Shown: positions 1,530 through 64,000, counted from the stretch's first letter. The stretch: DNA of 64,000 bases from Schmidtea polychroa (GCA_044892525.1 CM097888.1:78182001-78246000); one strand, 5' to 3'. Notes: generated from the letters alone by a model not told the origin. Made by a program: numbers and translations.

Positions 1530-2250
1530 AATCTTATAAGACTTGGTGGCAATGGCATCGTGTGTCAATCGACTAATCAATGTTTAAGTATAAACAAAAG
1601 TACCACAGAGGCCGGTTTCCAGCTTCGAAAAGATGGATGTTTGGTGTAGTCGATACATCTTCCACACCTGAAAAATGTTACGTTCTGCAAGTGTATTATA
1701 AAAAGTGTTTGTCGTCCTGGTTCTATGATTTGGAGTGATGAATGGTTGGCTTACAATCAATTATCGAACGAAGGATATGGACATCAAACAGTTAATCACA
1801 GCATAATATTCATAAACCCTGTTAACCTAGTTCAGTGGTGGCCAACCCAAATCAATCGAAGGGACAAATTTTCGGAAAAATACTATCACATGCCACGATA
1901 AATTCATTTAAATAAATATAACTCGTTTTTACGATTCAAGTAAACTTAGAATCAAGTTTTTAAATTAGAAACATGCTTAATTCGAATATGAATTCTAAAA
2001 AAGACAATTATTGATTTGATGTTTAAAATTGTGTCCGGGCCACATCAAAACGCTTCGCGGGCCACCGGTTGGCCATGGCTGACCTAGTTAATACTCAAAC
2101 TATCAAATTATTGTGGAATAAACTCAAACGACGAATACGAAGAATGATGGGTTTGAGCAGCATTTACTGGAATAGCATTTAAATAATTGTATGTGGAAGG
2201 ATAATCTTGGAAACAGAGGCTTTAATAATTTATTAAATTTAATTCGATAA
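1530..2250 (+). mobile_element. Degenerate Merlin (IS1595/ISXO2-like DDE) transposase relic
   Basis: Frameshifted translation gives RLGGNGIVCQ(I)D*SMFKYKQKYHRGR...WMFGVVD...IWSDEWLAYNQLSNEGYGHQTVNHSIIFINPVN/LVNTQTIKLLWNKLKRR. This matches the Merlin motifs (ID-ES, KYxRGR, SDxWxAY, HxTVNHS, TQxIExxW). It is split by the hAT MITE at 1833-2081. Confidence 0.85.
1833..2081. mobile_element. hAT-type MITE (249 bp) inserted in the Merlin relic
   Basis: Imperfect 15-bp TIR cagtggtggccaacc / ggttggccatggctg. Exact 8-bp TSD acctagtt at 1825-1832 and 2082-2089. Removing the element and one TSD restores the Merlin frame (PVNLVNTQ). Confidence 0.9.
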
Positions 2251-2368
2251 TATTTTTATTTATTTATTCTTTATTTTAATACTATTTTTTATTTATTTAT
2301 AATTATTAATTATTTTTTTAAAAAATAAAGGGAAAAAATATCAGATCCAATTTAAATATTCTTTTTAA

Positions 2369-4764
2369 CACTAGGACGGCCAGAGCGGTTATTTTGACCG
2401 TTAAGCAATTTCATTTTTATTTTGTGAGAAAACGAAAAGGAATTAACGTCTCATATTTTGTGACAATTATTCATTTTTAGTGAACTTGTTGTGCATATCA
2501 AAGCTTCAATTATAGCATTTGTCACGACTGAGATAATGAGGCCATCCCCATGGAAGGCCGAACCGGTCAATTTGACCGGTATATTGAAACACACAAGAAA
2601 GTCACACATAATCATCTTACATACTAGAAAATATAAAACCAAATATAATTTACACACAACCGAAGCATTTAACAGTCATTTGGGAATGTTTTCCACAGTA
2701 AACTTTACTACATACATGGCATATAGCTCCGGATTTGTTATGACAATGAGGAGCAGAACAAGTTTTTCGCTTCTTTAATTTTGGTTGTTCAGAACAGAGT
2801 TCACCAGAGATGGGACTTGCTGTTCGACGGCTTTTGAACTCCTCACAAAGAGATGTAGCTAATTCAAAAATAAAATCCCTTCTTTTTACAGTTGATCCCG
2901 TAGCATCTTTGAAAATAACATGAGCGTTGAGAGCTGCTTTATCAAGCAAATCATAGAAAGTAGCGACTGGCCATCTTGCTGTTGCGGCTTTACTGCTGTA
3001 TAAACGCAACATGCTATCCATGGTATCTACAGCTGTCTTATTTTTGTTATAAAAGTGTATCATTTCAGGCTTTCTCTTTTCGTCAGATCTCACACTAGCA
3101 GTAGAATGGAATGTTGACATGACAATGACTTTCTTGTCCGATTTGCCTTGATAGGAAACAGTGACAGTGTTTTGACACGATAAATGAGTCGATTCAAAAA
3201 GAGGCTTTTTCTCCAAGTGAGCTGATGATAAAAAGCGTGAATTTAATCTTACAGTACCAACCAATGTTGTTCGATTTACAAGGAGATGTTCAGCTAGTGA
3301 GAGACTTGTAAAGAAATTGTCAGTGCAGACATTGTATCCTTTATTGAAAAATGGCTCCATTAGTTTCCTGACTACAAAATCACCCAGCCGTAATCCACAG
3401 CGTTCGTTTCTATCGTGAGCCCCTAAATATGGCATTTGATTGATGACAAATTTGGTTTTGACATCACTGAGAATCCAGTATTTGATACCGAATTTATCAG
3501 GCTTATTTGGCATAAATTGGATGAAGCAACACCTATTTTTTAGCGGCAAAAGTTGCTCGTCGACAGTAAGGAAGGGATTAGGAGTATAAACTTGAAGACA
3601 GTTTGAAACAAACAAGTCAAATATTTCACGAAAATGGGCATATTTATCTTGTTCTACTCTTTGACGTCGAGAACATTGTTCATCAAAACGAAGAAAGCGC
3701 AGTATCTCACGGAAACGGTTCCGAGACATGACTTCTCTGAAGTAAGGAGATCCAAATTGAGATGACCAGATTGAATTGATAGAATGTCGGCGAAAGCCTA
3801 ACACACCACGGAGATACAGCAATCCAAGAAAAGCATCTAATTCTTGTAGACTGATACACCAGTCTGACGAAGCTTCTTTTCCTTTCATAATTGTGTATTT
3901 TTGAATTAACTTCAGCATTCCCTCAGAGACTATCAAGCGCCAAGCGCTCAGGGGTGAGTCAATTTTGCGCTTTGCAAAAGCTTTCACACCAGGTGTTCCA
4001 CTAAAAATATTGTGCGCAGGGAATCTGCCAACACTAATAGCGTGATTGTTTTCTACTTGATTCCAAAGAGTGCCATCCCTGCCAGATAAAAGCTGATTTT
4101 CTAATGAAGAAATTGAGCTATTGACTGACTCATTGTCACTTTCTAACGAACTTCCATTATCATCAGAGTTCCATTCATGTAACTCTTCGTCAGAATCATT
4201 TCTTTCGGGCTCATCATCACTTCCCATAGGCTGATCTTCATCTTCGGAGAGAGCAGCGTCAATATTCCATAGCTTCTGTAAAGCACGTTGAGCAGCAATT
4301 CTTTTAGTTGGCATATTTGATTCTAAAATAATGATAAAAACTCCGTCAGTAAAATAAGAAACGTCAAATTTATTATTGGATTCTAATGAAAACACGGTTT
4401 TATAATGTTTGTTACACTTTTAATAAGCACTATCTTTGAATAAAAGCAAGAGAATATTTATAAACAAGAAATGAAGTATACATACATACCAGTCTGAATA
4501 AACGCGAAGACAATGTTTAAAATAGTGTAGCTTTGTGTCAGCTAAACAAATATTTTTATTTCATTGTTGTAAGTAGTTTAATAAATTAACTACTGTTAGA
4601 ATAAAAATAGTTAAATTTTGAAAGCGTGTTAGTAGCACAAAGAAAGTATTGCTAAATGAGTTGCATCATAGAAATCTCAGCATGAAAATAAGGAGCATAT
4701 GTGCACCGGTCAAATTGACCGGTTTGGCCTTCCAAGGTATAAAATATTTCCGGCCGTCCTAGTG
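2369..4764 (-). mobile_element. Full-length piggyBac DNA transposon (2396 bp)
   Basis: TTAA at 2365-2368 and 4765-4768. Perfect 13-bp TIR CACTAGGACGGCC (2369-2381 / 4752-4764). 30-bp subterminal inverted repeats 2551-2580 / 4705-4734 (29/30). Intact transposase inside. Confidence 0.97.
2650..4314 (-). CDS. piggyBac transposase (DDE_Tnp_1_7-type, 554 aa from first ATG)
   Basis: Open frame with acidic N-terminus, catalytic motifs TVDEQL, CTDNFFTS and YNKNKTAVDTMD, a basic KLKKRK motif, and a C-terminal Cys-rich domain CSAPHC...CHVCSKVYCGKH...CFGC. The ORF track starts at an upstream GTG (4395); the first ATG is at 4314. Confidence 0.95.
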   Translation of the reverse strand: MPTKRIAAQRALQKLWNIDAALSEDEDQPMGSDDEPERNDSDEELHEWNSDDNGSSLESDNESVNSSISSLENQLLSGRDGTLWNQVENNHAISVGRFPAHNIFSGTPGVKAFAKRKIDSPLSAWRLIVSEGMLKLIQKYTIMKGKEASSDWCISLQELDAFLGLLYLRGVLGFRRHSINSIWSSQFGSPYFREVMSRNRFREILRFLRFDEQCSRRQRVEQDKYAHFREIFDLFVSNCLQVYTPNPFLTVDEQLLPLKNRCCFIQFMPNKPDKFGIKYWILSDVKTKFVINQMPYLGAHDRNERCGLRLGDFVVRKLMEPFFNKGYNVCTDNFFTSLSLAEHLLVNRTTLVGTVRLNSRFLSSAHLEKKPLFESTHLSCQNTVTVSYQGKSDKKVIVMSTFHSTASVRSDEKRKPEMIHFYNKNKTAVDTMDSMLRLYSSKAATARWPVATFYDLLDKAALNAHVIFKDATGSTVKRRDFIFELATSLCEEFKSRRTASPISGELCSEQPKLKKRKTCSAPHCHNKSGAICHVCSKVYCGKHSQMTVKCFGCV

Positions 4765-4769
4765 TTAAT

Positions 4770-5532: not shown

Positions 5533-8500
5533 CTAAAACTTATTGTTGACTGTATTAATGTATTCTCTTAGGATAGTTGTTAGGTGGTACTTTTTTTCAG
5601 TCGAATGACAACCTAGAATCCACGATCTTGATCCACATTGAATTTGAAATGCCGAGTGCATGTCTGAATAAATTATTTCAAGAAATTACAATAATGATGA
5701 TTTTATCTTCTTTATTTTATTTTTTGTTAATATATTGCGTCATTAGCACGTTGCGGGATGCGTTGCGTTGCTCCTTTGAGCGCATCAGTAATCGTAATGA
5801 AATTATGAATAGTTTAAATATAAAAATTAGGTAAAAGCAAAAAAAAAGAAATTGAGTCCTTGGGGAAAAAACATGAAAATCTGCAAGATTCGAAACCTGT
5901 TAGTTCAAAGTGTTAGTAATCTTAAAAATGTTGAATTTAAACTACTTAAATATGTAAAATAATTAATAAAGTAGAATAAATAGTAATACTTAAAAGGCTT
6001 AAAGTAATCATTCACCCTGTTCTACTAGATAACACTTTCTATAATTTTAAAAAATCAATAAATTTTATAACATAAACTATAAAATTATAATAAAATAATT
6101 TAGAAATTTTTAAATATATTTATTGGAAAATATTTGAAAAAAAATTTTAATAAAAAATTTTTTTATTTAATAAAATTTGTGTAATTTATTTATTAAATCT
6201 ACTAATATCTACAGTTTTTCTATATTACCATACGGGAAAACTGTCGAAATATATTGTAACGAGTATGTTTGAGTGAAGCTTTCTAATAATGAAATCGTTG
6301 CCATGTTTATTTGATTATTTATTTTAATTATTTGAATAATTAAAAATTTAACATAAAATGATGAATTTATGTACCTTTTCTATCTGGAATATCATACAAT
6401 GAAATTTTTGATAAATCCAGCGCTTTTTCAAAGGAATGATTATGAATGATTGTCCTACAATATGGTTGCAATTCCCTCGTGATTCTTGTTAGAATGATCG
6501 AGTCGTTGAACATAAATAATCCGCAATCTTTTGCCTGTCGGTAAAATCTAAAAGTATCTAATTAAAACAATGAAACCCATAAATTTATACCGAAAGTCAG
6601 GGTCGATTGATTTGGTGTTAGTTGACGGCATATATAAGCATAGATTCTCCTTTGTAATAAAATATCTTCCTGGTTCAATCAAAATCTTAATCAAATCAGT
6701 TGGGAAAACCATTGTAAAAATCTTACCGGACAATTAATTATGCTTTCTTCAATTTCCTTGAACTTTTTTGCTCTGCTAATTCTGGATTTCTCCTTAAAAC
6801 AAAAATTATGTATCCGCGCGATTGATGAGGTCAAAGGTGAATTCCATATATTTAAACCTGATAAAGGTGTCAGAAATTCACAAGCATTGAAATGTGTTTT
6901 ACTTTATTTTTTCTTCATTTAAAGAATGATCAGAAAATCATCGTTAAATTGAAAATAAATTGTTACCTACAGTGTAAATTGGATAAAAAAGGAAATTGAA
7001 ATTGAAAACGATCAAACAATGATGAAGAAGATAAAAGATTTATTTTATGCATATACATTTTGGATTATAGTTTTTGTCAAGCTTTTCAGGAAACTCCAAT
7101 TCCATGCAGGATTTGTAAGGACCGACTCTATTGTACATAATATGCAGATATTTCCAATACATAGGGTCCACAATATCCAGGTTTTATTGAATTAACATGT
7201 TTATTTGATGTAATATAATTTTGTTTATTTCATTTCCTTTCATGTTTTGTTTTTATTTTATTTATTTTTTAGCTAGTCATTTCATTTTTTTTATTAAACA
7301 ATTTCAAAAAGTCAATATGCTGGAAATAAATAAAACGATATCTACAAATTAAGAATTGTTAAGAATTCCAAACATTCTTTTCTTTTATTTCAACTAATTA
7401 GGATATATTACATTTTTTCATATATTATATCATATATTAGACAAAAGAACTATTTTATAATTAATACATAAATATTTCATGAAGTACTGATTCTTGTAGT
7501 TAAATAAAAAAATATTGTTTAATTTATTTTATAGATTTTTCATCTTGTTGAGTGACCTTGACATTTAATAGTGTTTTGTTTTTGTTTTAATAATCATTCA
7601 ATATTTAATATAATGTTAATTAAAATTTTTAAAATGTTTAATTAATATTGTATTTATTAAAAAGCTTGACTATGAATAAGTAAAGATATCGATGTTCGAT
7701 TCACGAATTTTCGGCACTGCCTTTTTAATTAATAATTTTTATATAAATTTTTCAGATCAAATTATTATTATTCTAATTAAAATTAAGATTAAGATTAAAA
7801 TAAAATGAAAATGATAAACTATTAAATGTGATTGTTATTACATAATAATGAAAACAGTGGATTATAATTTCGAAAAAAGGGAAAATTTTGTAATAAATGA
7901 AAAGCTACATTTAATGTAGAAAACTTCTAGAGACAAATTGCACAAAAATCATATTCCTATATTAATCATAAATAAATTTAAATATTAAGAGTCGTTACCA
8001 AAAACAGAAATAAATAAAATAATAAATATTTGATAGAGTAACATATATGCTAACAAGCATTTATTTCTAATTTTTTTCCCGATAAAGTTGACAGAATCTT
8101 GGAGGTTAGGCAATATTGAAGAGAATAAATTAATTTTACCTGAACAATGATTTTGTTTATTTTTGTTAGACCACCTAGAGACCTTCTAAGATGCTCGATA
8201 TCAGCATGTTCTGGTGGAGTATTAGAGAGAGCCCAGTGAATAATACTCATATATTCAAGAATCCTATTGACTGGTTTGAGAAAAAGTTCATTTAACCTAA
8301 AATCTTTATTATTCCAATATAATAATGCATATTATACGATATCATTCCTGATTCAGGCTGGTTATCGTGCATAGCTAAAAAGTTTCTGAATTTCAAATTA
8401 GTTTCCCGACATCTTTCGATAGTTTCTAAACTGTTTGAATAGGAAATGAAAAATGTTCCATAGATTATCGAAATGTCATTGATATGGTTTTCTAGGAGAT

Positions 8501-11500
8501 CACCAATACAAGTCTCTGTTGACCACTGGCTTAATCTTGAGTCAAGATTTAAAATTAAACTTTCTGAAGGACCTATGAACATGAGAATGTCACCAAATAT
8601 CACCTACAATATCATGTAAGAATTAGTGAAATATTTAGTGTTATGTTTACCTGAATATTGTGAGGTCCCAATACCATTCTGTTTGACAGCAAAGCTCGTT
8701 TTAATGGCATATAATAGTAATCATTGATACATTTTATTATCTGTAAATATCGCTTTTCATTTAATAGTAGTTCTTTTATTACAGATTTTCTGAATAAATA
8801 TTTGGACTTCATATCCTATAAACATAAAATTAATTTATTTTGATACTTGATGTGAATTATTATTAATATTCTGTACGCTCAATCCATTTTGTACTTTTTA
8901 TGATAAATAAAAAACAATTAAAAAAATGCTTATTTATTATAAGAAATGATCATGAACATTTTAATTATTCAGGATGAACGTGAGCGCCGCCTGAAATGCA
9001 TTATTACATCCGACGTGACATTGGATCATACAAATGCTTTACGGTTTCTTTAGAAATAAGATTCCATTATTAATCAACCCGTAAATGCGCAATTAGTGAG
9101 AGATCTGGCCGACAAACCGGTCACGAAAGAATCTAAATCCTTCTTAATCTGTAGGAAGTGGCACTACCAGATTATCAATGATGTCTTTGGTGTAATGTTC
9201 TCTGTCTAACATTTCATGAACATCCCAAATTCATTTTTAACATCATTTCAGTTTTAAGAACCATGTTCCAAGATAAAGTCATTAAAAGATGTCCATAAAA
9301 AGTCATATAAATGGTCGTTTAATACTAAAGAGTTCACTATTTACGTTCAAACATAAAAATGACTCATTTCTAAATACATTTGACTCCAAATCAAAAGGTT
9401 TCAATGAGATCCTTCAAGATGACATTTTACAAAAAAAGACAAATTATTTATCTTAAGTTGGTAATAAGATAACAAGTGGAAAAAATTAACCATTATCATG
9501 AAGTGTCACTAAAAATGAAGAGGTGTCTGTGATAAAAAGAACTATAAAAGAAAATACAAGTTTAAATGTAGCTAAAAAAGAACGACAAAAACATAGAAGC
9601 CTAAAAACATAAAGGAAACGAGACAATTATAAATAAAGAAAAAAGGAAGAATTATTAATTGAATAGAGAAAATGAAGAAAGCAAATTAAATTTTAAATAG
9701 CACAAGTTAAGAAAGTGATGGGGAACCTGTGGCCTCCCGGAGCTTCACGTACGGCCTCCGGAGCTTTATCGAAATAAATCCTAATTTATAAAAAAAACCT
9801 TGAATCTTGAGGATTTACAAATAAAAATAAATAGTGAACTGTATATATACCGTACTGTACAAGCATCCCGTCGAGTACAAAGAATGAAATATAAAAGTCA
9901 ATCATTCACACCCATAAATACAAAACGTATGTACACAAATAAATAAGATTACTGAACACTCATTTGTGAAATGATGACTTATTTACATCAATTTTTCGAT
10001 TCAGAAATAATAAAAATTTTCCAGAATATTTCGTACAGCTGCATTTTTCAAATCTGGAGACCGATTATAAACATTATTTTAATTACTGTGTATAAACAAA
10101 AGATTTAAAATGAAATTGATTAATGTTAAAATACTTTATTACTGCGGCCCCATTTGGAGGCGACAAATTTCAATATGGCCTATGGAAATAAAAAGGTTCC
10201 CCACTCCAGAGTTAAGGCAATAAAATGAAACCCGACAATTTAAAAAATCTATTTTTACGAAATACTGAGACAATCTATTTTCAATTTCATTTAATTGCAA
10301 TGAATGCAATTGATTTAATTTAACAAATAATGCCTTATTTAAACCATTAACGATTTTAAAAATTTATCGATATGACTAGTAAATTTCATATACTACTCTT
10401 TTATCTCCAAACGAAATGGTAATTCCCTTTCTAAATGAACTAGTTTATTTATGGTTATTTCCATATCAACCATCATCGGAGATTTTCTTTTTTCCTGTTT
10501 CCCAGAAGGAAACCCGTTCAATTTCCCAATTTATTTCTCTTTTATTAGTTGAGCGCAAGACAAAAGAGCGAAAAAATAATTTTATTTAAAATTTTTATTT
10601 AATTAAAAATACAGAATTTTGAATTAAATATTCTGTATTATATATAAAATTTTAATTAATTAATTAGTTTGTATTTCTAAATTTACACCTTGGGAGTTCG
10701 TCATTGTTGTCATAAAAACACGCTTGGAGTCTGATCAATAAATGTTAACGCTAATTCACCTTTTGTATTTTTGATAATAAAATCTGTTGGTTTTTAAAGT
10801 CTTTATTTATTCTTAGAATTATGAGCTCAACAATATTTGAAAGAATTTTACCTGTTGAAATGAAATATTTTCATCGCAGTTCAAAACTATTTTGTCTTTC
10901 TTTTTATCTTTCTTTTTGTCTTTGTCTTTCTTTTTAGATTTATCTTTGTCTTTTTCTTTGTTTTTTTCTTTATCTTTTTTAACCTTTTCTTTTATTTTGT
11001 CTGTGTCTTTGAATTTATCTTTTTCCTAAATGAATTTATAAAATATTTAAGAATAATATTCAAATAAATATGATAGAAAGCCAAATAATTATTATTTTAA
11101 ATATTATTATTTAGGGTTTTATATATTTTATATTAGCGGTAATCCTGTGATATTCGACGTGCCATTTTGTGGTATTCACAAGGTTTACGAACATGATCGT
11201 ATGATTATTGGATTAAATTCCTGATAAAAGAATGATATTGAAAAGAGCCAAATAAGTACGAAACTAATCTGTCATCAAAAACTACAATACACCTGATTTT
11301 GATTTGAGTTTTTTTAATAATTATTGACGATATTGATATAGATTAATTGTAAGGTCTTTAGAAATCATATATAGCATTTAATACAATGCATCTGTATGTT
11401 AGGGAAAAGAAGGAGCAAGATTTATTGGCAAGTTGTGTCACGAATTACTATTCCAAGGTTTCCACTCTGTCCTAACTATGTCAGTGGGTTAATTTCATGG

Positions 11501-14500
11501 TTCATTTAGTTTTAGACTATTGTCTGATAGCTCTATTTGTTAAATAAACCAAAACCATAAATCCAATGATTTCTTACACAAACGTCTTTATTAAGTTTAA
11601 AATTTATCCAAAAATCAAAATCACTTGAAAAAGGCAGTGCCGACAATTCGTGAATATCAAAAAAAACATCGATATTTTTACTAATTCATAGTTAAGTTTT
11701 TTAATAAATACAATACATTAATTGTTATTAATTGTTGCTTTTATTACTTATATCCAGTGGTGAGCTATGCATGTCCTGCGGGGGCTCGGCAGAGCCCCTT
11801 GTTAACTTTTAAAAAATTTTGCGAGCCCCTTGTTGTTCTTTCAACTGTGATTTTGCGCTTCACTTCAAATTAAAATTTCTATTGTTTTAATGGGAAGATT
11901 AATAAATATCTGAAACATGTTAATAAAATTGATACCAGAAACAATAGTATATCAAAATAAAATTTCTGGACGCTTTTATATTTTACTAAAAAAGCAAATT
12001 CGGAAAAAAGCATTTTTTTTCTGGACGAAAAACACCTAAATTTTTTTTGCGAGCCCTTTGTTGTTTTTTTCACAGCTCACAACTGCCTATAAGATAATAA
12101 TTTACTCCATGGACAAATATTTTATTTTTAAATATTGAGTTGTAAATCTGATAATTATATAATATTCTTTCGAATAATGAAAATATTAAAAATAGGGTGA
12201 CCACACAAAATATTAGCGGACAAAAATTTGAAATTATTTTTTTTTAACTTTTAATATTTCTCTGAAAATTTTATAATAAATTACATTTAGACTAAATTTT
12301 AATAAATAGATTATTTAATTTTTTCATTGGTTATTCCATTTTATATATATTTTCGCTACCATTTGTGCGCATGACATTTTGTCCTAGCATCAAATATAGC
12401 TAAATAAATATCTTGTTGCTTCTTGCCATTGAAAGTGTTAATTTAAGTAATAGACTAATTCTAAAGTTGAATTATATATATAAGTACCGCAAACTGTAAA
12501 TAATCAAATATTCTGGTAAATTAGATAAAATTTTACAAATATTAAACCCAACCGAAACTGAAGGATTTGTTGAATCTGTAGTTGGCTTGAGTACATCTGG
12601 TTCTTTAACACTTATCTAAATAATATGGCATATTAAATATTAAATGTTATAATTGACTTATAAAAGGCGTAATAAGAATTGAATTAAATCTTGAATTAAT
12701 TAACCTAATAAATAAAATTAATTTATTCTCTGTTTAATTCATAAAAATATGTGAGATTTTAAGAGGGATTGAATATGTACTTTCTAATTTATAAATTATA
12801 TTTATATTAAAATTGTTTTTATTTTTTAATATATAAAATATTAAAGATTTATAAATAAAGTTTAATATAAATATAAAAATACATACACATCAAAATAACG
12901 GATTTCACATTTTTTAATTGAAATTTATTAACACATGTATTGTTTCAAGTATTTATGATGATTTTTTATATGTCATTAGAGTAATTAAAATTATTTTTTT
13001 AATTTTCCATTTAGATACATTAATTTCAATGTTAATGCAGGGCCGTTTCTACCACCAGGCAAGATTATGCCGCATTTTCAATTAGAACCTAAAGCAGTAA
13101 AACATTTAGAATATACCAAATATACCAATCAACTCTGTAAATTCTTGTGTGGAAATATATAATTATAATTATTAGAAATAAATAATTATATAAGTTAAAA
13201 TAAAAATATAGAATAATTTCATATTTTCTGTCTTATTTGATGATGATAGTAAATAGGGGCTCGCTAACTCACATACCACTAACCCCCCTGGTGAGGATTT
13301 TTCCCTAAAATTCCTAGTATTTTTATGTAGGTCAACTCAAATTTCATTATTTTTTACAATTTTCGATTCTTAAAAGTTATTGGACTTTCCTTTTTTTATT
13401 CCCCATTACACAAATGCGCGCATACAGTCGGTTTTTCAACCCCCGACATATTTTTTATACTTGACTTACTTTGAGTTAGACTATTTATTGAAACTATATA
13501 GAGTGTGTATTGGACCTACATTGAGTCAGGGGACCCCTATTTTTAAAGTCGATTTTACTTACATAAATTTGAATTGACCTACATAAAAACTATGAAAAAT
13601 TTCCAAAAAACCTTGAAAATCATAAAATTATAAAATTTGAATTGACCTACATAAAAATACTAGGAATTTTAGAAAAAAATCCTCGACAAGGTGAGGCGAG
13701 TGGGTATGTGAGTTAGCGGTCCCCTATCAATCTAGTATAGTAAGATTGTCGAAACATATCGTAAAATAGATATTTAAATGTAGCTTTCAAATAATTGTTT
13801 AATTTTGCGCACAAATTTCTTTTTCCTGAATTATTTATTAAAATGTCTACATGCAAACATATATAATGTTAATTTTTTAAATACTTTTAGTAATTGTTTA
13901 ATTGATGATTTTTTTCTGTGACCTCAAATTTTTAAGACATATTTTTTTTGAGGTCGCTAATTTATGACATGAAGAAAACCAAGAAAAATTCATTCATATA
14001 AATCAAATAAAAATCGATAAATTTTAATTAATGACTTCAATGATGCTGGGAAAATTTCACTATTAGCAGTATTGAAGAATATTAGTTTTTTTTAATTAAT
14101 TTACTTTGATTTGAAAAATTGGATTTTTCGGAAATTATTATACTATGATTCTTGTTGTTCAAATTTGTGATTTCTTCAAATTGAAAGTTGTGTAGAATTT
14201 AAAAATATAGAATTTAGTTGGTGATATTTATTGTTTTTGAATTTGCTTGTGGAACTGAGTGTATTTTACTATACATATATTTACAAGAAATTTACTAGAA
14301 AATATTTTCCTACTCTGAATGACTTTGGTAATGATAGTTAACACAATTGAAGATTTCCATCAATTTTCTTTTTCAAATCAATTTATTAAATTTACTAATT
14401 GCTCTCTCTGTTTGAACTCCAAAATTATTGTGGATGATTTATGGATCAAAGATGGCGTTATTCAAGATTCAGAGCAGTTTTATGTCGACAAATGTGCTCC

Positions 14501-17500
14501 TGATGTAATTATAGATTGTCAGAGTGCAATTTTATCTCTAGGATTCATCGATATTCAAATTAATGGTGGATACAGATATGACTATTCCAATTTATCACAA
14601 GAGCTTGAAACTAGTTTAAAAGTAGTTAGTAAGAACCTCGTTAAATTCGGCGTGACAGGTTTCTGTTCAACACTTGTTGTGTCAAAAGATGAAGTTTATC
14701 ATGAAATATTGTCGAAAACCTATAAAATGCCAAGTGAGAATTCACAGAATCTAGGATTTCAAATAGAAGGCCCGTTTCTATCGGGTTTAAAGAGTGGAAT
14801 GCATGATCAAAATTCATTAAAAGAATTTGGTCCTAATCCGGTTGAGACTAAACACGAAACAATTAGCTCAATTCATGGCTTTATGTTTTGTGTTAAAAAC
14901 ACATCGTAAATCGTGTTCACTTTGAATTGTTGCAAGACTACAAAATATATTTATATCAAGCCAGTCTAAACCCCATAAAATTTTTCCACACTTTTGGAAC
15001 TATTTATTTGACAAATAAAATTTAAATATCGATAAATTTTATGAAGAGTAATTTGCCGCCATCTCACCTGAACCTTGTTGATTTCAGAATTCCTAAGATG
15101 CTCCAGAATAGCAACAAGAGGATCCTAAAACAGTATTTTAAAATTATTTATTATTTAATAAAGTTCAATATATTATTAAAATGCCAAATAATAATTATTA
15201 ATAATTTAATTTTTTCTTATAAAATTTTAACATGTTTAGCACTGTTGCTGACGCCTTAACTAGTAAATTTTCGCTAAGTTTTTTCTTGGTTTTTATATTC
15301 TATACCAACATCAATCATTTCGATTCTGATGAACAATATTCCCTATTTTTCTGTAATATGTATGAATTAATAATTATAAATTCTTATCATTTCACACTAG
15401 CGTCACAGCCCGCTATAACATTCGATGATTTGGCTTTTAAAATTGAATTGATTTACATCGTCGACAAAATTTTAATTAATTGATTAGTTTGTATTTTTGC
15501 AATTAAGTTGTCTTAATGCTTCCTAAGAAATTAAAAGTATTCAATTCATCTTTAATTTTTTTGCTACCAGCCAGAAAATATATTTTTAGATATTTTGAAA
15601 AATTTGTTTAATTTTGCAAGTGATTCGCATAACTCAAAATATTTACTTGTTTCCTTGAGAGGATTTATTAGTACATTTTACGTCCATTTGTTCACATTTA
15701 TTTAACCAATAAAGACAACATGTAAATTGAGAAATATAAACAAAATTCAATTCATCAGTGTTTCTAAAATGTTGAAAATAGTCTTCCTTATGTTTTACAC
15801 ATCTGTCAACGTTCTGGAAATTGTTCTATACCGTTTACGTAGAATACTACATGTTTTGAAGCGAATCATTTTTCCAATTCACTGTTAACTTTTTCAACTG
15901 ATATGTTCTCCCACGAAGTGAGTTTTTCATAGGAAAACAGGTAATAGTTTAAAGGGGAAAGGTCTTGTGAGTATGGTGGATGTGGTAATATCATAAACAC
16001 TATCTCAGCAAGCTAGTTTTCAGTTAACTATACCGCATGTGGAAATGAACATTTTTAAAACTGTTTCCGTACAGCCAACGACTCTTTTGTCGAACCGTGT
16101 CTACCATATAAACACTTTCAATTTATTTTACCACTAATTTAGCTTATTTATTAATATTTTAAAAACCATTTTAAATAAATAAAAACTATTGATCTACAGT
16201 CTGAATTGAGGATAAAAAATAGAATATGAAAATAATCGATCAAAGGTAAAAAGAATAAAAATTTTTTGTTAGACGCAATTAAATTCAAATCTTCTTTAAG
16301 CATTTATTTTTATAACAACTTCAAAATTGTCCCGTTTACTAGCGTATTTAAACACCGAGGCGTGATAATTATTAATATTGATGTAATTACTGGTCATACA
16401 TTTAATTGATTTAATTTAATATAATTTAATATAATATGATATAATTTAATATAGAATTTGAATATAGAAATTTAACAGAAATAATTATTTCTACTAACTG
16501 ATCTCACTTCTACCATTTAACCATAATAATTTTATATAGAGATTTACTAACTCCTTACATTTTTAATTTATAAAAGTTACTCTGAACTTATTCATAAAGT
16601 AATTTTGACCTGTTTCACTAGAAAGATAAATTGAATATATATGAACTAATTCATATATGTCATCGCCAGTAAACTTACTTTATCATTGCATTTACTAAGT
16701 GGCTCCCATAAGTTTCTAATAATAATATCTGTATCTAAATCTGGATTTGTAAGAGAAGCTTCCCGAACAATTGATCCTAAAACATTTCAAACTAAATATG
16801 ATAAATATCAATTTAAAATTCCAAATAAAATTTTCTTTATCTTCATTTATTTGCAGAGTATATTACTAAGAATTCTCAGCAAAGCTCTTNNNNNNNNNNN
16901 NNNNNNNNNNNNNNNNNNNNNNNNNNNNNNNNNNNNNNNNNNNNNNNNNNNNNNNNNNNNNNNNNNNNNNNNNNNNNNNNNNNNNNNNNNNNNNNNNNNN
17001 NNNNNNNNNNNNNNNNNNNNNNNNNNNNNNNNNNNNNNNCGGCTGCTCTTTATACGGCTTTTCGCTATAACGGCCTACTTTAATTACGGCACTTTTTCGA
17101 TTTACGGCCTAAAATGTTTCGTTATACGGCCAAAAATGTTATGTAGAACTGCAAAAAGAAGCAAGAACCAAGGCAAGACAAACAACGTTGGATAAATTTC
17201 TTATTTGATTCGTTATGCGGCGTTTCGCTTTGCGGCCAACTTTCCTGGAACGTATCTAGGCCGTAAAGCGAGGTATGAGTGTAATAATAATAATTTTAAT
17301 TTCATAGTGTTAATTTGCACACGAAGAATATGCATTATATCATTAATTGACAATTACATCTTCAGAATCCTTTAATATTGCTCTGTTCAAGGCCATTGAG
17401 AGCGATTAAATAACCAATGAAAAATAGTAGCAATTTAAATTAACAATTGTCATTACCTGTTAACTGTTTTAGTAGGAAATCATCAATTTCTGGATATTGG

Positions 17501-20500
17501 TTTTTCAGATAGGACTTTGTGTCAGCACAAATTTCATTGACTGCTTCACCGAATTCAAGCCAAAAGTTTAATTTATTAATGGAGAAATAAGCATAGCACG
17601 GATGCACATTTCCCTCTGTATTTATTGTCCATTCTCCGAGTACTATATAAATAATGATGTTAGGGTTGTGCAAATTAATTAATCGAATGGCGAACGTAAA
17701 AAGTCAACAGATTTTTAGGAATACCGAAAACAAGTGACAATTAAAAAAACCAATTACATAAAATAATTTAAATTTGATGTGAATCCCTAAAAATTTAAAT
17801 ATTAAAATAATAATATGTGCAGGAAGTTCAGCGAGAAAATAATACAAACATAACAAAAAAAATAACAATATTAGAACAAATTCAAAAAGAAGGTGATAAC
17901 AAGAATTAAAAAGAAAAAGAAAATGTTAGCAAAAAGAAAAAAAATAGAATGGGAAATAGGAAAAATACATTTATAATAGGTTAAATTATCAAAAAAAATG
18001 ATCTAAAATGAATCAAAAGTCGAGAAATCCAATATGGAGTCGCAAATAAGGTGCATTAAATAAATTAGAAATTTTTGGAACTAACATAACTCTACGTATT
18101 TCCTCGACTAAGTTCAGTGGCCAGAACGATTTGAATAAATTAAAATATTATTATCGTAATACACTTTCACAAGTTCTATAATAGTGTAATGGTAATCAAT
18201 GTATAAACAGTTTCAACAACTAGATCAAATAATTGATGAATAAACAGTTTCAACCATTATTAACTGACAGATAGTCAAAATATATCAAATAGACAATCCA
18301 TCATACTATCAGAGTTGGCACAAGTCGATGAACCACTTAATGAAGGAAATTTTGCCGAATTAATCTTCCTAATAATATTTTTTCAATGTTGGTGTTGTTT
18401 TATATTTTCTAAGGAGAAATGTAAGAGAATAATCTATATTCGTTGAATTTCAATCTGTTTTATTGAAATTAGGCAGATAAATAATTGCCTTATTGTTGGT
18501 TTGTTAACATGCAAGATTTATTTACTTTATTTAACAGAAGTTTGCGATAATTTATAGATAGTTAGATCAATGGTCTATGTTGTGATTTGTCCTTATGGAA
18601 TTTGGTTGCTGGTGTAATTAAATTTTTTGACAATTAGTTGGTATTATTTTTACGGTGCAATTTCATTGATGATTTAATAAATATTATTGATATATAACGT
18701 CAACAAAATTAATTCAATTTCTTTGGAAAAAGGGGCAAACATAATTTATAAAATTGTTAAACATGATCATAATTTGCAATTAAACATAAATCAAAATAAA
18801 TGAGAACTTTAATGAAATTGTTAAGCCTGTTTTACTGATTAGTTTGAAGGATGAAAGGATGAATAAAGGATGTCTATTCGCAAGTCGATTAAAATTGCAA
18901 TAAATAACCTTTTTTTGTGCATAATAAAATTTAACTGATTTATGTAGATCTAATTTTCTTACAATTCCTCTGTTTTCCGGTGAGTGTCAAATGACACCAG
19001 GGACCGTAATATAAATTGGACACATATATTTTCTACCAATAGTCCGTGCACCCATGATAATGTTACCTAACTATAGTTAACCAGAGTGAACTCAATTTTT
19101 ACTAACACTCATCCATTCGACACATTACCAACGTCGTTCATTCGAATAGTATGAAAGCGTTGTATTCTAGGTTACGCTGGAAATAGGACAAAAAGATATG
19201 ATTTTGTTACTATGTAACCCATCAATAATAATGTAAATGCTGATGTAATGCAGAAATTATTCCATCATAACTATCGAGTGTTGTACTTGTAGCTATTGAA
19301 TATGTTTCTTATCTAGTCTTTGGAACTTTTGAATAATCTTTGAAAAATGACAACAGTACTTCCCACCTATGTATATATAATGAAAAAAGTTATATATTTC
19401 TTGAACAATTGGAAAAAAAAGCCTTCTGCATCTAAACAACAGTCAACTGATGGTCTACTAACAATATTCAAGGAATGACTAGCATCGTATGATATATTTA
19501 GAATAATGAAGGACTATCTTGTTAAATTGAGATGGTTTTAAGAAAATCAGAGTAAAGATGAAATCTTACATGGTGATTGATAAGTGTTAATGACTATAAT
19601 GGATAAATTTTGACAAGTGGATCAAATTAAATTTTTTTTTCAAACTAAAAATGTAACAAAACATTTTATAAAGAAATAAAATAAAATAAACATTTAAAAA
19701 TATATATAAAAAAATGTCATATATAGTCAGTTATATTGTCAGTGAGTGACCATTTGATCATAGGTTTGCCATTTTCATTTAGAATTGCTATTTTGATCGA
19801 AAGTAAAGAAATATTTCGCCATTTTGATGGATGAAAGTGTTAGTAAAATACATGAAAAAGAAAGTTTGCCCTAGTAAAATTGACCTTATAGTAGATTATA
19901 TACAGTGATTATGGTCTTGGTTTTCTGACATAGAATATATGAAAATAGACTTAAATTTTGGTAGGGTATCATAATTTATAATTTAAAAAGTTTCAGTTAG
20001 ACATGATTATATAAAAAAATATTTAGAAATTAAAAATTATTCTGATCCTTACTGAATTTATACTGTCCAACTGCACTTATAGGAGCAACAAAAGTTGATT
20101 TAGTAAATTCATTCATTTCAATGAGCATTTCGTTTCCAGCCTCTAGGGTAACAATCATTATTGTTATATATAAATAACCGACAGCTTACCAAAGGCACCG
20201 AAAGGTATAAAGAGGTGAATGTGCCCGTTTTCATTTTTTGGTTTGATATTTGCGGCAAGACTATTCATGAATTCTAGAAGTTCTGGATGCTCAGAATTAT
20301 TGTTTTTTCTACTAAAACATTTGTTTCTAACTATCCACATTTCGTTTTCTCTGTTACGGTGTCCAAACAAGCCAATACTCCTACAAGAATGTATTAAATT
20401 TAGTTTAAAATCTTACTTTTATATTGCCACATATGTGTGAGTTTAGTTTTTTTATTAAATTTTTTTTTAAATGTGTGTTTTATTTGTTGAATTCCTTATT

Positions 20501-23500
20501 TATGGATTACTACACTGAAATATTTGTTTAAATAATATGATGAAGGTTATTATTTAAATTTTAAAAAAATTATTTATTAAAATAGCTTGACTATGATGAA
20601 TCAGTAAATATATCAAATTAATCAATATATTTACTGATTCATAGTCAAGCTTTTTTAATAAATACAGTGGAAAAGATATCAGTGATGAAATTTGAAAAAA
20701 AAGTTCTTATAATATTAAAAAAATGTTTATAATTTTACTTTGGACTATGGATATTATTAATAAGAAAATCATTTGACTAATATAAATTATTTGAACAAAA
20801 TGCAGATTTCAGGTGGTAGACAAAGATTGTAGGAACAAATTTGCTTGAACGAATATTACGTAACAGGAAGGTGTTGATACTAAGTAGAGAAATTTGTGTG
20901 GAGATTTTAAAATATATAGAGATAATTGAGAAATTAAAAAGTAAGAGTGGAAAAACTTATCAAAATCAAACGAGACTTACCGATTGTGAATAAAATGTCT
21001 CATTACCCCGAAATCTACCGAGTAACAAGTGTAACGATCCAATTTTGAACTTACTATTCCATCATTATAATTTTGTGCCTCATTTAAAATTTTGTCATAC
21101 CGAATTAAACTTAATTAAGTTGTAAACGTATAAATGAATTCAAATTAGAATAAAAATTTTTGTAGGAAAAATAAATTTGATTTTTCACCCGAAATTAATA
21201 AAGAAATTACATAAATATATTAAAACATGTTCCAATAAACCTCTAGATAAGCTAAAAAATTGTGTACACTACTCAAGGTATGCATACATACTTATTAGTG
21301 ACATGCAGTCAGATTCACAGGGCAATCACGAAAACGGATATTAAACATATATTGAACTTAATCACAAAAACCGTTACGATAAATTATCTGCTTATAGATT
21401 AGTTTAAAATAAATTTACAATAAGTGTTTCATTGTTGAACATTCACATGTACTAACTGGTGGTACCTTGAATAGGGTTTGCATAATTTAAATTATATTCC
21501 CATTTCATTGGCAAAGTATAAACTACAATCTAATGTAAAAGACTTGAAACGAATATTTGTTGATATGAAAGCAGTGAAATTTAACATTTTTTTCTAAATG
21601 TGCTTAAAATCTTTCATTCTTTCCAATTGTAGTAGTGTATTATTTGTGGATAAATTCATTAGATTATTTGAAAATTTATAATTCCAATGTTCTTAACGTA
21701 AACGTGCAAAAAGAAAATTTTTTTAAATCAATTATTTGTGGATAATATGTGAATATGCAGAATATACAGAATATGTACAGAATATGTACAGAATATGTAC
21801 AGAATATATGTTGACCTATCTATGGTCATTGAGTAATATGTTATAACCAGTGATTGGATTCGATTTTCTTTGGAACCAGTACGCTTTTCAAATTTTTTAT
21901 TGATTTTATTGATTTGTAAAATGAAAAATCCGTACGCACTTATTAGAACCTATTAAGAACCATCACTGACTCTAACTAACAAATATCATTGATTTATAAA
22001 AAAAATTATTTTATATTACAAAAAAATTAACTAATAAATCGATTTACTAACATAGCTTTACGGCCCCTCAGAACTGATTCCAAATCATAAATCATAGTTT
22101 TGAGAGTTGTTGAATCAAAATCATAAGGAATTGGTATCACTCCAAAAATTACAGAATCTAACAGTATCTAAACTCATATTTCAAAATTAAAATCATTTTT
22201 TAACAAAAGATAAAAAACCATAAAAATATATTACTTCCTCTGTTCCAAAAAATAACTGAGCTATTTGAATAATTTAAAACATTTATTCAAAAAAAATATA
22301 AAGAATAAATTAAATTATATGTTATTATTATATTATAAAAACTTTTTTTTTCAAATTTCACCATTGATTTCTTTTTAATTGACATTGTATTTATTACAGT
22401 TGACTATGAATCAGTAAATATATCATAAACATCGATATATTTACTAATTCATAGTGAAGCGTTTTCATAAATACAATGTTATTATTGTTTGGTAAATATT
22501 GGTAAATATTTAAATAATGCGTTATTTCAAATTAATAATTTTCTCAAAATCAATTTTCAAATTAAATAAATCCTTCAAAATGACAAAAGATTTAATCAAC
22601 ACACAAAAGTTAGATATTATCCAACATTTATTACAAAATCACAAAAATCTGGAACCAAATAATGCATGATTATGAATAGATAAAATTTTGTTATTTTTCA
22701 AATTATTATTCTTAATAATTAATTAAATCTTTATTTTGAAATATTTTATAAAAACTAAAAACTGCACTTGCACAAAAGATTAAAACATTAAATCATGTTG
22801 TAATCTTGTTGTAATTATCCGTTTCTTAGTCTAAAAATTAAGAAAAAAGCCAAACTGTAAAGACATACAAGTAATTCGAATAAAGATTTTATTCAAAAGA
22901 ACATTGCAATAAATAATTGATATATCTGCTCCAATAGCCAATATACCAACGAAAGCAAGGACACTTAATCTGGCGATTGTATGGAGATTGTTTTAAGATC
23001 TTGACCATCATCATAGAGATTATAGCTAATAAAACGAAGGCTTCAGTTTCTTGAATGTCTGGCATATTTTCTTTATTGGTTCTGGCGAGATTTAATGATT
23101 GGGAAGTTGAATGTTTCATTGTTTCTTTTACATTGAATTTGATTTTGGAAAAAAGTGAGAATTATTTAAACAATGATTTTTAATTTGATTTTAATTTAAT
23201 TAATTTAATATTATATGTTAAGTTCAATTATTAAATTGATAAAAGTGGGAGTCAGTGGCACTACACAAACAGCTCAAATATTTTGGCACGGAAGGAAAAG
23301 AATTTTTAAAAATTGTTTTGGAAAAAAGGTATTGTTTAAAAAATTAAAATTATATAATTTATTTTAAAAACTTTATCCTACATGCACATACCAAATTTTA
23401 TAGCATTGAAATTTTCAATGCATTTTAAAGAATTGTGTTTGTTTTGATTTCAAAAGTATTTTTCCAGCCGAAAAGCAGAACAGAAGCTCCCTATCATAGA

Positions 23501-26500: not shown

Positions 26501-29500
26501 AAATATATCTAATGTAACTGTTTAAACTAATTTTTTTTAACAAATTAGGAATTTCTGAGATTGATAAAGAAGAACTTATAGTTGAAGGAGAATATAATAA
26601 TAAAAATGGAATGAATGAAGAACTAAAAGTAACTGGTGACAATATGCAGAATTAAAAATTATTTATTGCTTAGAATGAAATCAATTGGAAAATTGCTCAA
26701 TTTTGCTGGCGCAGAATATCTACGAGTATTGTTCGTGAAAAGCCGATCAGAGTAAAGATGTAAAACCAATATGTATTAATGCTTTGGTGCTTCATCATCG
26801 TGTGGATAGTTTGCATCCATCATAAAGAATCCATCTCTACTCACCTTTCACAAAATAATTGAGAAAAGGATTAAGAAAAGCAGCGAAGAACATACTTGAA
26901 AGTAACAGTTGTTTTGGTTGTCATTTAGTTTATGTAAGATTTTTACTTTTCCTATTTCATTGAAATGTTCAGAAACTATACCTATAGTATTATTCGTTAA
27001 TTCTGACTACTTGAGTATGTATGCGCACACTTCTTTTGGTCACTGTGCAGACACGAGTAGTAGGGTTTTTGGATTTTATTTGAAATTGATTTTTTACGAT
27101 TGCTTCTAATATTAGGGTTGTTGTTTAAAAAGTCTGTTTTTCTGAAATTTTCGGTTTCGATTTGGATTTCTTTTGCTGAAGGTCGTTTTTTGTTCCTGGA
27201 ATTTTGATATTGAAAAATAAATCCTTTTCGGAATCTTCTTATTTTAATTATAATTCAAATTGAAGTTAATGATTGTGTTAAATAGTTTAACTCAAAGAAT
27301 GAATACAGATTTATTTGTGTTGACAATAAAATTAATGATAAATAGATGTCTGTGCATTTTAAATCGATTGCTGCTACAAATGGAACTTCAATAACTGATG
27401 TAGAAGTTCTTTTCGATATTCCCAAAGCTGACACAGGATCCATTACTTAAATCATGTTGGAGACATTTAATGCACCAATGATGTGTGTTTCAATTCAGTC
27501 AGTTTGTACGCTTCAGGTCGTATCTCGGGTATCCTTGTGGATTCTAGTAATCCTGTATCTCGCCCTATTTCAATTTATGAAAGATGTGTTTCCTCATGCT
27601 ATTTGTAGAATTAATTTAGCTGGAAGAAATTTAACTGATTATCTAATGAAAATTATGACAGACAGTGGATACAGTTTTACAACTGCTGACGAAAGCGAAA
27701 TTTTTCGAGTTATTAAAGTAAAATTGTATTACATTGCTCTTGATTTTGAACAGGAAACACAAACTGCTGTTTTTTCATCGTTTCTTGAAAAGAGTTAAGA
27801 ACTACCAGATGATCAAGTTACTACCATTGGACCTTAAAACTTCAGATGTCCAGAAACTTTGTTTTAGCGATCATTATTGGAAATGGAAACTGCTGGTATT
27901 CATGAGATGACATAAAGCAGCATGGTGAAATGCGATGTATATATTTGTAATGATTTAATTAGCAATACAGTCTTATCAAGTGGTTCGACAATGTCTCCTG
28001 GTATTGCTGATCGTATGTAAAAACAAATATCACATTTGATTCCATCAGCATCAATGATAATTAAACAATTATATTACTATAGAACTATGTTACAATAGCT
28101 ATAGTATAATTTCTGTGTAAATTTTCTAGCAAAGAATGTTTTAACCCTTAATTGCATGATTTTTTTTATTTATTTTGAATAAAATAAAGTAATGTTTTGT
28201 ATAGTATAAGTATATTGAGACTTGTGGCGCATTTGGCGGTCACTTTATGAACTAAATCCGTTAAAAGGCTTTGTAGCTCACAAGCAACACTACGAAATGG
28301 TTAGTTCTTATTTATTTTAGGCGATCTAAGCAAGAAATTCTGGTATGTTGCAAATTTGCTACACAATGCAATTAAGTGTTAAATGATATTAACTGTTTAA
28401 TTCCCTTGAACAATATCCTGTCTCACGCCGAATGACTTCGAATTAGCCTGTCTCATCTTGTAGTGTTCTATATTTAGCTAACGTGCGTGACGTTAATTCA
28501 TACTGGTTTCATACATGGTGATATGTTTGCGAATTATTTTTATCAGTGTAAATTTTTGTAGGAAAACCGGTCATTATTCTTAGAACATCCTAATAATTTG
28601 TTTTTAATGAAATACTTCAGAAAAGAAGAAATTTTTGAATTAAATCATGAAAAACAGGAATATAACAAGAAAATTACAATTTGGAAACGAATGGAAAAAC
28701 ACCGAATCCATAAAATTTTATGCTTTAATTAGTGTTTTATTGGAATGGGGTGCAATAGGAAGTGAAATATTTAAATTCATTAATATTGAAAAAGTGATGA
28801 TCCGTTCCACGTGCCACTATTTGCAGAATTTGAATACTTCAATTAATAGTTGTATTAAAAATGAAGGAGTCACGAAAAATTATCCACAATAAATGCAAAA
28901 TATTTATCCTCATAATATAATTGTTGTGATGGTATTGTATTGGGCTATTTTTATTATTTTTCTGATTTTCAGGCGGGCGATAACAGCGTGAAAGGTAGTA
29001 GTAGTGATGGTAACAGTTTGAACAGTTATAGGTATGAGATAATATTTCCGTTATTTGCTTTATCATTCTAATTAATATTATATTTTAGAAAAAACGAAGA
29101 ATCAATGGAAGTGCAAAAAAATAATTATGACAATCAATTTGTTTTATAAATAAAAAATAATATCGACTTTTTAACCCTTTCCAGCCCAGTGATTCCAAAT
29201 GGAATCATTAGTTAAAAACTCAGTTTTTTTCTCTCTACTACCAAAACGGTTGGCAGTAACTAGTGAGAACTATAGTAAGATATGTTTTTAACAGTTGGCA
29301 CAATTTTTATCTCACTAAATTTGTAAATTTGTATTTTTATGATAAAATAAGTAGTTTTGGTACCTACTTACTGCATATATTTTTTTTTGTTTTGAAAAAA
29401 TTTGGGCTGGAAAGGGTTAAAAGATTTTGTGAAAATAAATGATTTTTTAATTGATGAGATTGTTTACTGCTTTGATAAACATCGTTTTGTATTTTTGGTA

Positions 29501-38234: not shown

Positions 38235-38573
38235 CAAAAAATTATTAAAATGAAAATGAAGTCAGCAAGTTGCCAGTGAAAACGAAATGCTGAAGTAAAA
38301 ATAAATATCTACAAAGATCTTTACACAGTTTCTTTTTAGTTTTATTTACATTCCTAAACAATACTCAGGCACGAATTTTAATTTTCAATTTTTCTTGTCG
38401 AAATAATATATTTTGGACTTCAACTATACCAGACTTTAGAAATTACACATCGAAGCACTTAATTTAAACAAATACATTTAATTTTTAAGTTTAACTCTTA
38501 TAGCAATATTTCTTATCATTATTCCTATGTTCTGATTCGAAAGACTTTTTTATTTAGTAAAAAAATAAATCAT

Positions 38574-39653: not shown

Positions 39654-40048
39654 TTACATAGCAACACAAACAATAAATCATACTAAAAATAGCTTGCTTA
39701 TGAATTTAATTCATAAACGAGCAATAATTGGTTAATGATTTCAATTAACAAAATGATTGTACCCTGGATTTAGACTACAATTTATTTAATTTAAATTTAG
39801 ACCTAACTTTAATTCAAGAAAATTTATAACTATTAATAACTGTAGATTGAATTCATTATTTAGTAGTGATTAACTTATCTAAATTTCTTGCCACTTTTAG
39901 TTTAATTTGCGTGTTTTGTTGAGCAGTTTTTATTGGCGCATTTTATAAAATTTACAAAACCAATCCAAATCAAATTGAATCATTGTCAGATTTTAGTCGT
40001 GCTAGATTTATTATTTCATTTTAATTCTCTAGCTTATGACATTTAAAC
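39654..40048. promoter_or_regulatory. Candidate bidirectional promoter between KLHDC9 and the Sox-like gene
   Basis: The divergent ATGs are only about 395 bp apart (39653 and 40049). CCAAT-like motifs (attgg near 39934, ccaat near 39965) and slightly higher GC are present. Function is inferred. Confidence 0.4.
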
Positions 40049-41340: not shown

Positions 41341-41423
<83 letters not shown>

Positions 41424-63965: not shown

Positions 63966-64000
63966 TGATGTCGTATCACTATACACATCTATCGAACCAA
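63966..64000 (+). mobile_element. Start of a second, 5'-truncated Penelope-like copy in opposite orientation
   Basis: 63966-64000 is the exact (35/35) reverse complement of 62608-62642 and reads DVVSLYTSIEP on the plus strand. Confidence 0.85.

Follow-up and report, generated by a model that had tools for sequence, protein, structure and literature searches.

A young, repetitive piggyBac family with mirrored ends and a likely recent transfer between species

The stretch of DNA analysed here (the window, 64,000 nucleotides of Schmidtea polychroa) carries near its beginning an element with the ends and the open reading frame (ORF) of a piggyBac transposon, and the question raised by this locus is whether such a copy is a gene kept by its host, a silent relic, or one member of a family that has recently been moving, and how its ends would be recognised. 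A first-pass annotation of the window had proposed a complete and potentially active element with peculiar CAC tips and asymmetrically placed palindromes. According to our main reading, to which we assign a probability of about 0.85, the element retains its full ORF and comes from the youngest sub-lineage of a selfish piggyBac family that targets TTAA and has recently spread to about 110 sites, and it likely follows the mechanism of the T. ni piggyBac with the roles of the two ends swapped.

The features of the element are collected in Table 1. The gene runs on the minus strand, so that the element has its 5' end at window position 4764 and its 3' end at 2369. The TTAA sites, the perfect terminal inverted repeat (TIR), the 554-aa ORF, the DDD motifs and the Cys-rich domain (CRD) that had been described are confirmed to the base. 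Just two matches to the TIR occur in the 64 kb when up to two mismatches are allowed (0.05 expected), and the two arms of a 30-bp internal inverted repeat match at 29 of 30 positions, the values for 20 shuffles being 18-22. The gaps between this repeat and the TIR, 17 bp at the 5' end and 169 bp at the 3' end, and the palindrome at 2386-2400 are also as claimed.

Table 1. Features of the piggyBac copy in the window, with the basis or the proposed role of each.
Feature	Window position	Strand	Basis or remarks
TTAA target-site duplication, element 3' side	2365..2368	.	Sequence; TTAA on both sides in 72/74 two-ended copies
3' terminal inverted repeat, 13 bp	2369..2381	+	Ends in the predicted core-domain box (8 bases)
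3'-tip palindrome, 3 bp from TIR	2385..2402	.	Candidate CRD site, corresponding to LE35 of T. ni
Internal unit: box, 3 bp, 19-bp palindrome	2551..2580	+	Predicted third transposase site; putative counterpart of the T. ni left-internal site; relatives have it at the same position
piggyBac transposase ORF, 554 aa	2650..4314	-	Acidic N-terminus, DDD(D) core D252/D332/D430/D433
Cys-rich domain	2656..2760	-	C519, C524, C532, C535, C540, H543, C550, C553; C5HC2, aligned to 6x67
Branch-point-like motif, pyrimidine tract, AG acceptor 8 nt before ATG	4323..4351	-	Motif; an X17 contig passes into foreign sequence at this point
130-bp deletion site, within predicted 5' intron	4414..4415	.	1/74 copies
Predicted splice donor of 5'-UTR intron	4484..4489	-	Motif alone
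5' internal unit: box, 3 bp, 19-bp palindrome	4705..4734	-	Candidate binding site of a second dimer, corresponding to RE63 of T. ni
5' terminal inverted repeat, 13 bp	4752..4764	-	Sequence match
TTAA target-site duplication, element 5' side	4765..4768	.	Sequence

The statement that every component is intact has to be corrected, since the window copy measures 2396 bp against 2526 bp for the family-typical element and lacks 130 bp by a deletion private to it, which leaves the full ORF in place. As the gap is located between a donor-like motif at 4489 and the acceptor signals at 4351-4323, the missing segment is probably intronic, and its loss is probably harmless. The transposase mRNA would use the acceptor 8 nt before the ATG, whether this is reached by splicing out the element's predicted 5' intron or by joining a host exon to it, and therefore the 130-bp loss would not stop expression. 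No join of the predicted donor to this acceptor was present among the reads and contigs of the sequencing runs examined.

The encoded protein is matched by PF13843 (DDE_Tnp_1_7) with an E-value of 6e-70, and its catalytic residues D252, D332, D430 and D433 are the equivalents of D268/D346/D447/D450. In phmmer searches the T. ni piggyBac is matched over residues 23-551 (E 4e-65), and piggyBat over residues 126-478 (E 1.6e-28), a match that stops before the CRD. The predicted structure (pLDDT 79.6) retrieves 6x67 as the first Foldseek match (E 2e-34, 31%) and 9c0f as the second (20%). Eight CRD ligands align with those of T. ni in the order for which the class name C5HC2 is used in the survey literature (PMC13461360); the CRD alone gives no better than E 2.6 against 6x67. 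The N-terminus is acidic and contains six S/T-x-x-D/E motifs, and the residue preceding V429-D430 is Ala here and Gly in 15 relatives (alignment A1). The nearest proteins outside its own cluster are 45% identical, and the database search returned no protein between 45% and 99% identity.

Copies of the element were sought in the genome assembly G000 (781 Mb in 1012 contigs, four of them large). A similarity search gave 137 candidates, 40 of which were scored, with long matches at 98-100%, and exact 25-base tip patterns detected 110 5' tips and 89 3' tips, with 0 matches for the controls; comparison of the 89 3' tips with 100 of the 110 5' tips yielded at least 69 tip pairs. The alignment set is composed of 74 two-ended copies shorter than 3 kb, two longer copies with insertions having been left out. 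These copies diverge from the 2526-bp majority sequence by 0.45% on average and by 1.17% at most, in a sample tilted to intact tips. TTAA is present on both sides of 72 of them, most having been picked by patterns that include TTAA. Flanks are shared by two pairs among the 74, which are segmental duplicates; the dispersed copies otherwise have unrelated flanks, the sign by which mobility is recognised in the piggyBac superfamily. Copy number and identity, the check that had been proposed for this locus, thus describe a numerous and nearly uniform family.

The variation within the family has the form expected of copies drifting since their insertion. Singletons account for 232 of the 249 variants found in 25 copies, and the private changes in the ORFs of 72 copies comprise 73 silent, 245 missense and 24 stop changes, where the mutation spectrum predicts 75, 246 and 21, respectively (omega 1.03). 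Purifying selection, which a crude pN/pS of 0.69 in 25 copies had appeared to indicate, was discarded when the mutation spectrum was taken into account for the 72 copies and the ratio rose to 1.03. Private ORF changes are drift after insertion and not host constraint. The proposal of a recently mobile and non-domesticated piggyBac is supported by the copies, their low divergence and this neutral drift.

Only 14 of 76 two-ended copies have an ORF of at least 548 aa, and two of these 14 are without one catalytic Asp. A 1317-bp derivative that keeps only 77 bp of the 5' end, including the 5' internal unit, represents 8 of the 74 copies, 7 of them with different flanks; since this derivative has multiplied, the 5' TIR and the 5' palindrome are enough at that end in vivo. 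The window copy shares five bases with the copies L002, L005 and L210 and differs from L002 at 2 of 2396 sites; it is a member of the youngest sub-lineage. Other copies have one, two or three of the five bases, and this ladder suggests a master lineage that went on changing during the spread.

Other observations concern the composition of the family. Locus L118, considered as an older sister family on the basis of 87% identity by tblastn, has 8 substitutions in 2487 nt and was rejected as such. No copy with an inverted ORF was found in the family, the 74 copies being collinear and 47 further loci one-stranded. Two 3'-truncated copies with a 4555-bp period form a tandem array at L082 (G000:C3:140714401-140724000), beside L077. 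Two different derivatives, found in L048, L051, L215 and L218 and in L049, L050 and L219, both have 854-bp deletions, starting at element positions 79 and 617; both are of the younger lineage and multi-copy. The exact end pattern had 0 matches in metagenome_contigs, and none of 6 pattern matches in viral_contigs was confirmed as a viral carrier.

The arrangement of the ends can be described by three units, each composed of an 8-base box, 3 bases and a palindrome and each read inward: the first is fused to the 3' TIR, the second is 178 bp further, and the third occupies positions 31-60 from the 5' tip. Counted from the 3' tip, two of the palindromes occupy positions of about 17-34 and 194-212; the other, counted from the 5' tip, occupies 42-60 and is 28 bp past the TIR. 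In T. ni the transposase footprints are reported as LE14-35, LI181-199 and RE43-63, the spacers measure 3 and 31 bp, and an internal site is noted in other elements too (Morellet 2018, PMC5861402). The 3-bp spacer is at the 5' end in T. ni (PMC5381638) and at the 3' end here, which makes the layout mirrored relative to the ORF. Because their positions from the tips match those of the T. ni sites and of relatives, the palindromes are likely CRD sites. It is more likely that the working pair consists of the 3'-tip palindrome, with the 3-bp spacer, and the 5' palindrome, with the 28-bp spacer, and that the site behind the 169-bp gap is a third, internal one, as in T. ni. Of the earlier idea that the asymmetry predicts CRD sites, the palindromes as probable sites are retained, but not the contrast of 17 and 169 bp as the key feature. 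The 3'-tip palindrome is degenerate in the window copy, where base 2390, one of the five bases of the youngest sub-lineage, breaks one arm (a mismatch present in 3 of 74 copies), but not in the family, since the typical palindrome with perfect 6-bp arms is found in 62 of 74 copies.

The T. ni piggyBac (6x67/6x68) is, in the descriptions available, similar in TTAA, a 13-bp TIR, 19-bp palindromes, one end with a 3-bp spacer and one with a long spacer (31 bp, 28 bp here), a third site located some 190 bp into the end with the 3-bp spacer, the DDD(D) core, a CRD of C5HC2 order, an acidic N-terminus with CK2-type motifs and a splice acceptor just before the ATG. It differs in sequence (31% identity in the structural alignment), in the letters of box and palindrome, in its tips, which are CAC here, and in the spacing of the first two CRD cysteines, which are separated by four residues in our element. 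Moreover, its short-spacer end is 5' of the ORF (PMC5381638), whereas our element has both its short-spacer end and its third site on the 3' side of the ORF; and the third unit here faces like the near tip, whereas the left-internal boxes of T. ni appear, in our own reading of the published data, inward of the palindrome (PMC5861402). The SG4 piggyBac-like elements (Bouallegue 2017, PMC5381638) are also described with a TIR and palindromic subterminal repeats, direct and inverted, and with tips that follow the rule C[C/A/T][C/A/T]; table S2 of that paper may include mirrored cases or the window family itself. Planarian families resemble ours in near-zero divergence, a length of 2.1-3.2 kb and TIRs of 13-17 bp, and have been called possibly active (PMC10813416).

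The CAC tips, which had been presented as an unusual trait shared with piggyBat, lose this meaning: they agree with the published tip rule C[C/A/T][C/A/T] (PMC5381638), CACTA is one of four common tip motifs of young planarian piggyBacs (PMC10813416), 11 of 19 relatives start with CACTA, and the protein is nearer to T. ni.

These relatives come from a layout screen of 91 loci (L002, 10 other matches in G000 and 80 metagenome loci), 26 of which are two-ended. Seven of the 26 were dropped (one copy of the window family, five near-copies and one without a 3' palindrome), and the remaining 19 were labelled by eye, with L182 and L193 placed on weak palindromes and L120 and L124 representing one family. 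The layout is mirrored in 7 and as in T. ni in 12. On a quick IQ-TREE tree of 34 rows it needs 4 changes, at least 3 of which are forced by well-supported branches, and the label is not clearly clustered (38 of 500 shuffles are as low). The long-spacer unit of the relatives and their third site flank the ORF as inverted repeats, and a single recombination event between these two would reverse the layout. No description of the mirrored layout, of the family or of the transfer discussed below was met in titles and abstract beginnings of the literature; the supplements of PMC5381638 and PMC10813416 and figure S21 of PMC5861402 could hold these. At L120-L124, G000 contains further piggyBac families, at least three in number, which have CACTA tips, the T. 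ni layout and 33-41% identity to the transposase; one of them has a similar palindrome core, such that cross-binding is conceivable.

If the tetramer model proposed for T. ni (Luo 2022, bioRxiv 10.1101/2022.09.26.509586) is transferred to this family, one transposase dimer would hold both tips via the TIR box, its two CRDs would sit on the 3'-tip palindrome, and a second dimer would bind the 5' internal unit to complete the tetramer. An accessory role would fall to the unit 194 bp inward of the 3' tip, and excision would proceed via TTAA hairpins. The 3' end would play the LE role and the 5' end the RE role. No empty site or excision product was seen.

Half or more of the sampled element words were found in 18 runs, which include three organism codes, metagenomes and unlabelled runs; none of those listed is registered as RNA. 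Four runs were aligned to L002 and to two host genes (window 38300-46600); their kinds were guessed and the organisms are known by code. Run X1 (organism A) is the host, with 4 differences in 1494 nt of host genes and spliced introns. Its element contig is unspliced, extends from tip to tip with the alleles of the youngest sub-lineage at depth 107, and looks like read-through; it is not the window copy because it includes the 130 bp. In X4 (organism B) the Kelch gene has 157 differences in about 1281 nt and the element is at the majority sequence. Organism B was considered as a second host and rejected as carry-over, the 3' junction being that of the insertion at G000:C1:59352159, and two short contigs of X4 equal host non-coding DNA. 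X24 (organism E, raw polyA reads) has 260 of 305 host-gene reads below 90% and 0 at 99%, 15 of 19 element reads at 99% or more, and, in 3 of 3 reads, a base that 1 of 51 G000 copies has; the signal of a second host in organism E is suggestive and thin.

X17 (organism C, its kind guessed as RNA) shows nothing on either host gene and an element depth of 14-120. Its element has 9 differences from the majority sequence in about 2180 nt (about 99.6% identity); six of eight of its own variants are absent from all G000 copies examined, a 685-bp deletion is absent among the deletions of the 74 copies, and three junction 30-mers are missing from G000 at 2-3 mismatches. The X17 haplotype and the database protein P0001 sit between two G000 lineages, as would be expected from a shared recent founder. 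Recent horizontal transfer is therefore the probable route by which the family came to this host and to one or more other species, a possibility already raised for this locus and made likely by the junctions, variants and deletion that are X17's own.

This interpretation has to be weighed against the view that near-identical elements elsewhere are carry-over, mixed samples or mislabelled strains. Carry-over is proven for organism B, organism E rests on 19 reads, the absence of host genes in X17 may reflect expression, and the gap in the database between 45% and 99% identity is also in its favour; X17's junctions, private variants and deletion, together with the lack of 99% host-gene reads and the rare base in E, speak against it, and we regard this view as rather unlikely. 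More serious, at somewhat less than even odds, is the view of a genuine, young family that is by now silent or dead, with the window copy as a passive passenger that makes no transposase. Most copies are indeed broken, the 130 bp of 5' non-coding DNA absent from the window copy could hold promoter parts, no spliced transposase transcript is present in the host run X1, and an arm of the 3'-tip palindrome is mismatched in the window's sub-lineage. This sub-lineage is nevertheless found at several sites (L001, L002, L005, L210, L237) with 2 differences in the closest pair, and therefore moved after the base change; moreover the main X1 contig carries its alleles at high depth, although they occur in 3 of 74 assembly copies.

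The two other alternatives are far less probable. A piggyBat-like element, with the end recognition of piggyBat (arrays of sites on one end and a different CRD fold), could account for the CAC start and for two sites on one end, and piggyBat itself begins with CAC. We consider it very improbable, since the piggyBat match is the weaker one and ends at residue 478, before the CRD, Foldseek places 6x67 on top, and perfect palindromes are present on both ends here. The part of the piggyBat description consulted (9c0f; PMC11707139), which agrees with our element in superfamily and TTAA, gives 44-bp steps between three imperfect palindromes on one end and none on the other, and a CRD fold of another type (Cys3His1 + Cys2His2); structural identity is 20%. 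As for a single domesticated gene under host constraint, the outcome that had been named in advance as refuting the earlier proposal, the open ORF of the window copy is compatible with it, but more than 100 dispersed copies with different flanks, intact ends and neutral private changes (omega 1.03) leave it practically no weight. The recently mobile family with ends used as in T. ni in swapped roles is thus preferred.

The deepest X17 contig (depth 120) exits the element precisely at the AG of the acceptor, 8 nt before the ATG, and continues for 145 nt into foreign sequence. The 30 foreign bases shown run in frame into the transposase, and we take them, from their motif, to encode an EF-hand loop. 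Most simply, and in our view likely, splicing has joined the transposase in frame to a host exon; the alternative is a genomic deletion whose end coincides with the acceptor base. The peptide of the trapped exon has no match in G000 by a degenerate search. piggyBacs, T. ni included, have been described as natural exon traps, and CSB-PGBD3, with its acceptor 7 nt before the ATG against 8 nt here, is similarly a host exon joined in frame to a transposase (Newman 2008, PMC2268245); unlike it, the X17 fusion is in one contig of a young repetitive family and has no sign of conservation or of a fixed role.

A more far-reaching reading, which joins several claims and which we consider speculative and improbable as a whole, is that piggyBac ends are a flipping cassette, with three or four flips among the 19 relatives, and that this mirrored family is currently active, has very recently passed from one animal species to another (likely freshwater flatworms) and has been fused in frame with a host EF-hand exon, which would be a nascent event of the CSB-PGBD3 kind. 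If it were true, the family would be a native integrating vector for its hosts.

In a 2025 survey 13,693 piggyBac subfamilies are listed, 9 (about 40%) of those tested were active, and horizontal transfer is common in the superfamily (PMC13461360). Our family is an ordinary addition to this well-mined superfamily, with the modest extras of mirrored ends, a likely transfer and a likely in-frame fusion. From its copies a transposase can be derived that is open to testing and 45% identical to the closest database protein beyond its cluster, and natural end mapping is partly done, since derivatives with no more than 77 bp of the 5' end have amplified. The mirrored layout also implies that symmetric "left-left" ends, if designed after T. 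ni, would here be copies of the wrong end. If both transfer and fusion hold, the family would be a dated and very young case of horizontal spread with exon trapping.

Several other features were recorded in the window. An AT content near 27% and short introns are in keeping with a planarian source. A remnant of a Merlin/ISXO2-type transposase (1650-1901, plus strand, PF12762, E 7.5e-7) is located about 460 bp from the 3' end of the element. On the other side, a multi-exon RhoGEF gene (about 5535-22167, minus strand) has DH exons at 8131-8791, PH exons at 6376-6555 and about 5535-5660, and upstream exons at 17455-22167; it is on the same strand as the element, and the idea that the window copy lies within a host intron was abandoned because this gene appears to end at a stop about 770 bp upstream of it. 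A 196-aa ORF in a RhoGEF intron (14319-14909, plus strand) has no Pfam match and resembles a sugar-deacetylase fragment. A Kelch gene (minus strand) and an HMG-box gene (plus strand) are arranged head to head at 38574-46475; one X1 contig with GT-AG introns at 40097-40151 and 40385-44988 spans both, and therefore their 5' ends seem to overlap. An open ORF of 856 aa (61418-63988, minus strand) with RT and GIY-YIG domains, possibly young, is assumed by us to be a Penelope-like retroelement. Finally, a degraded actin-like fragment, probably a pseudogene, is found at 27454-27798 on the plus strand (PF00022, E 6e-4, below the cut-off).
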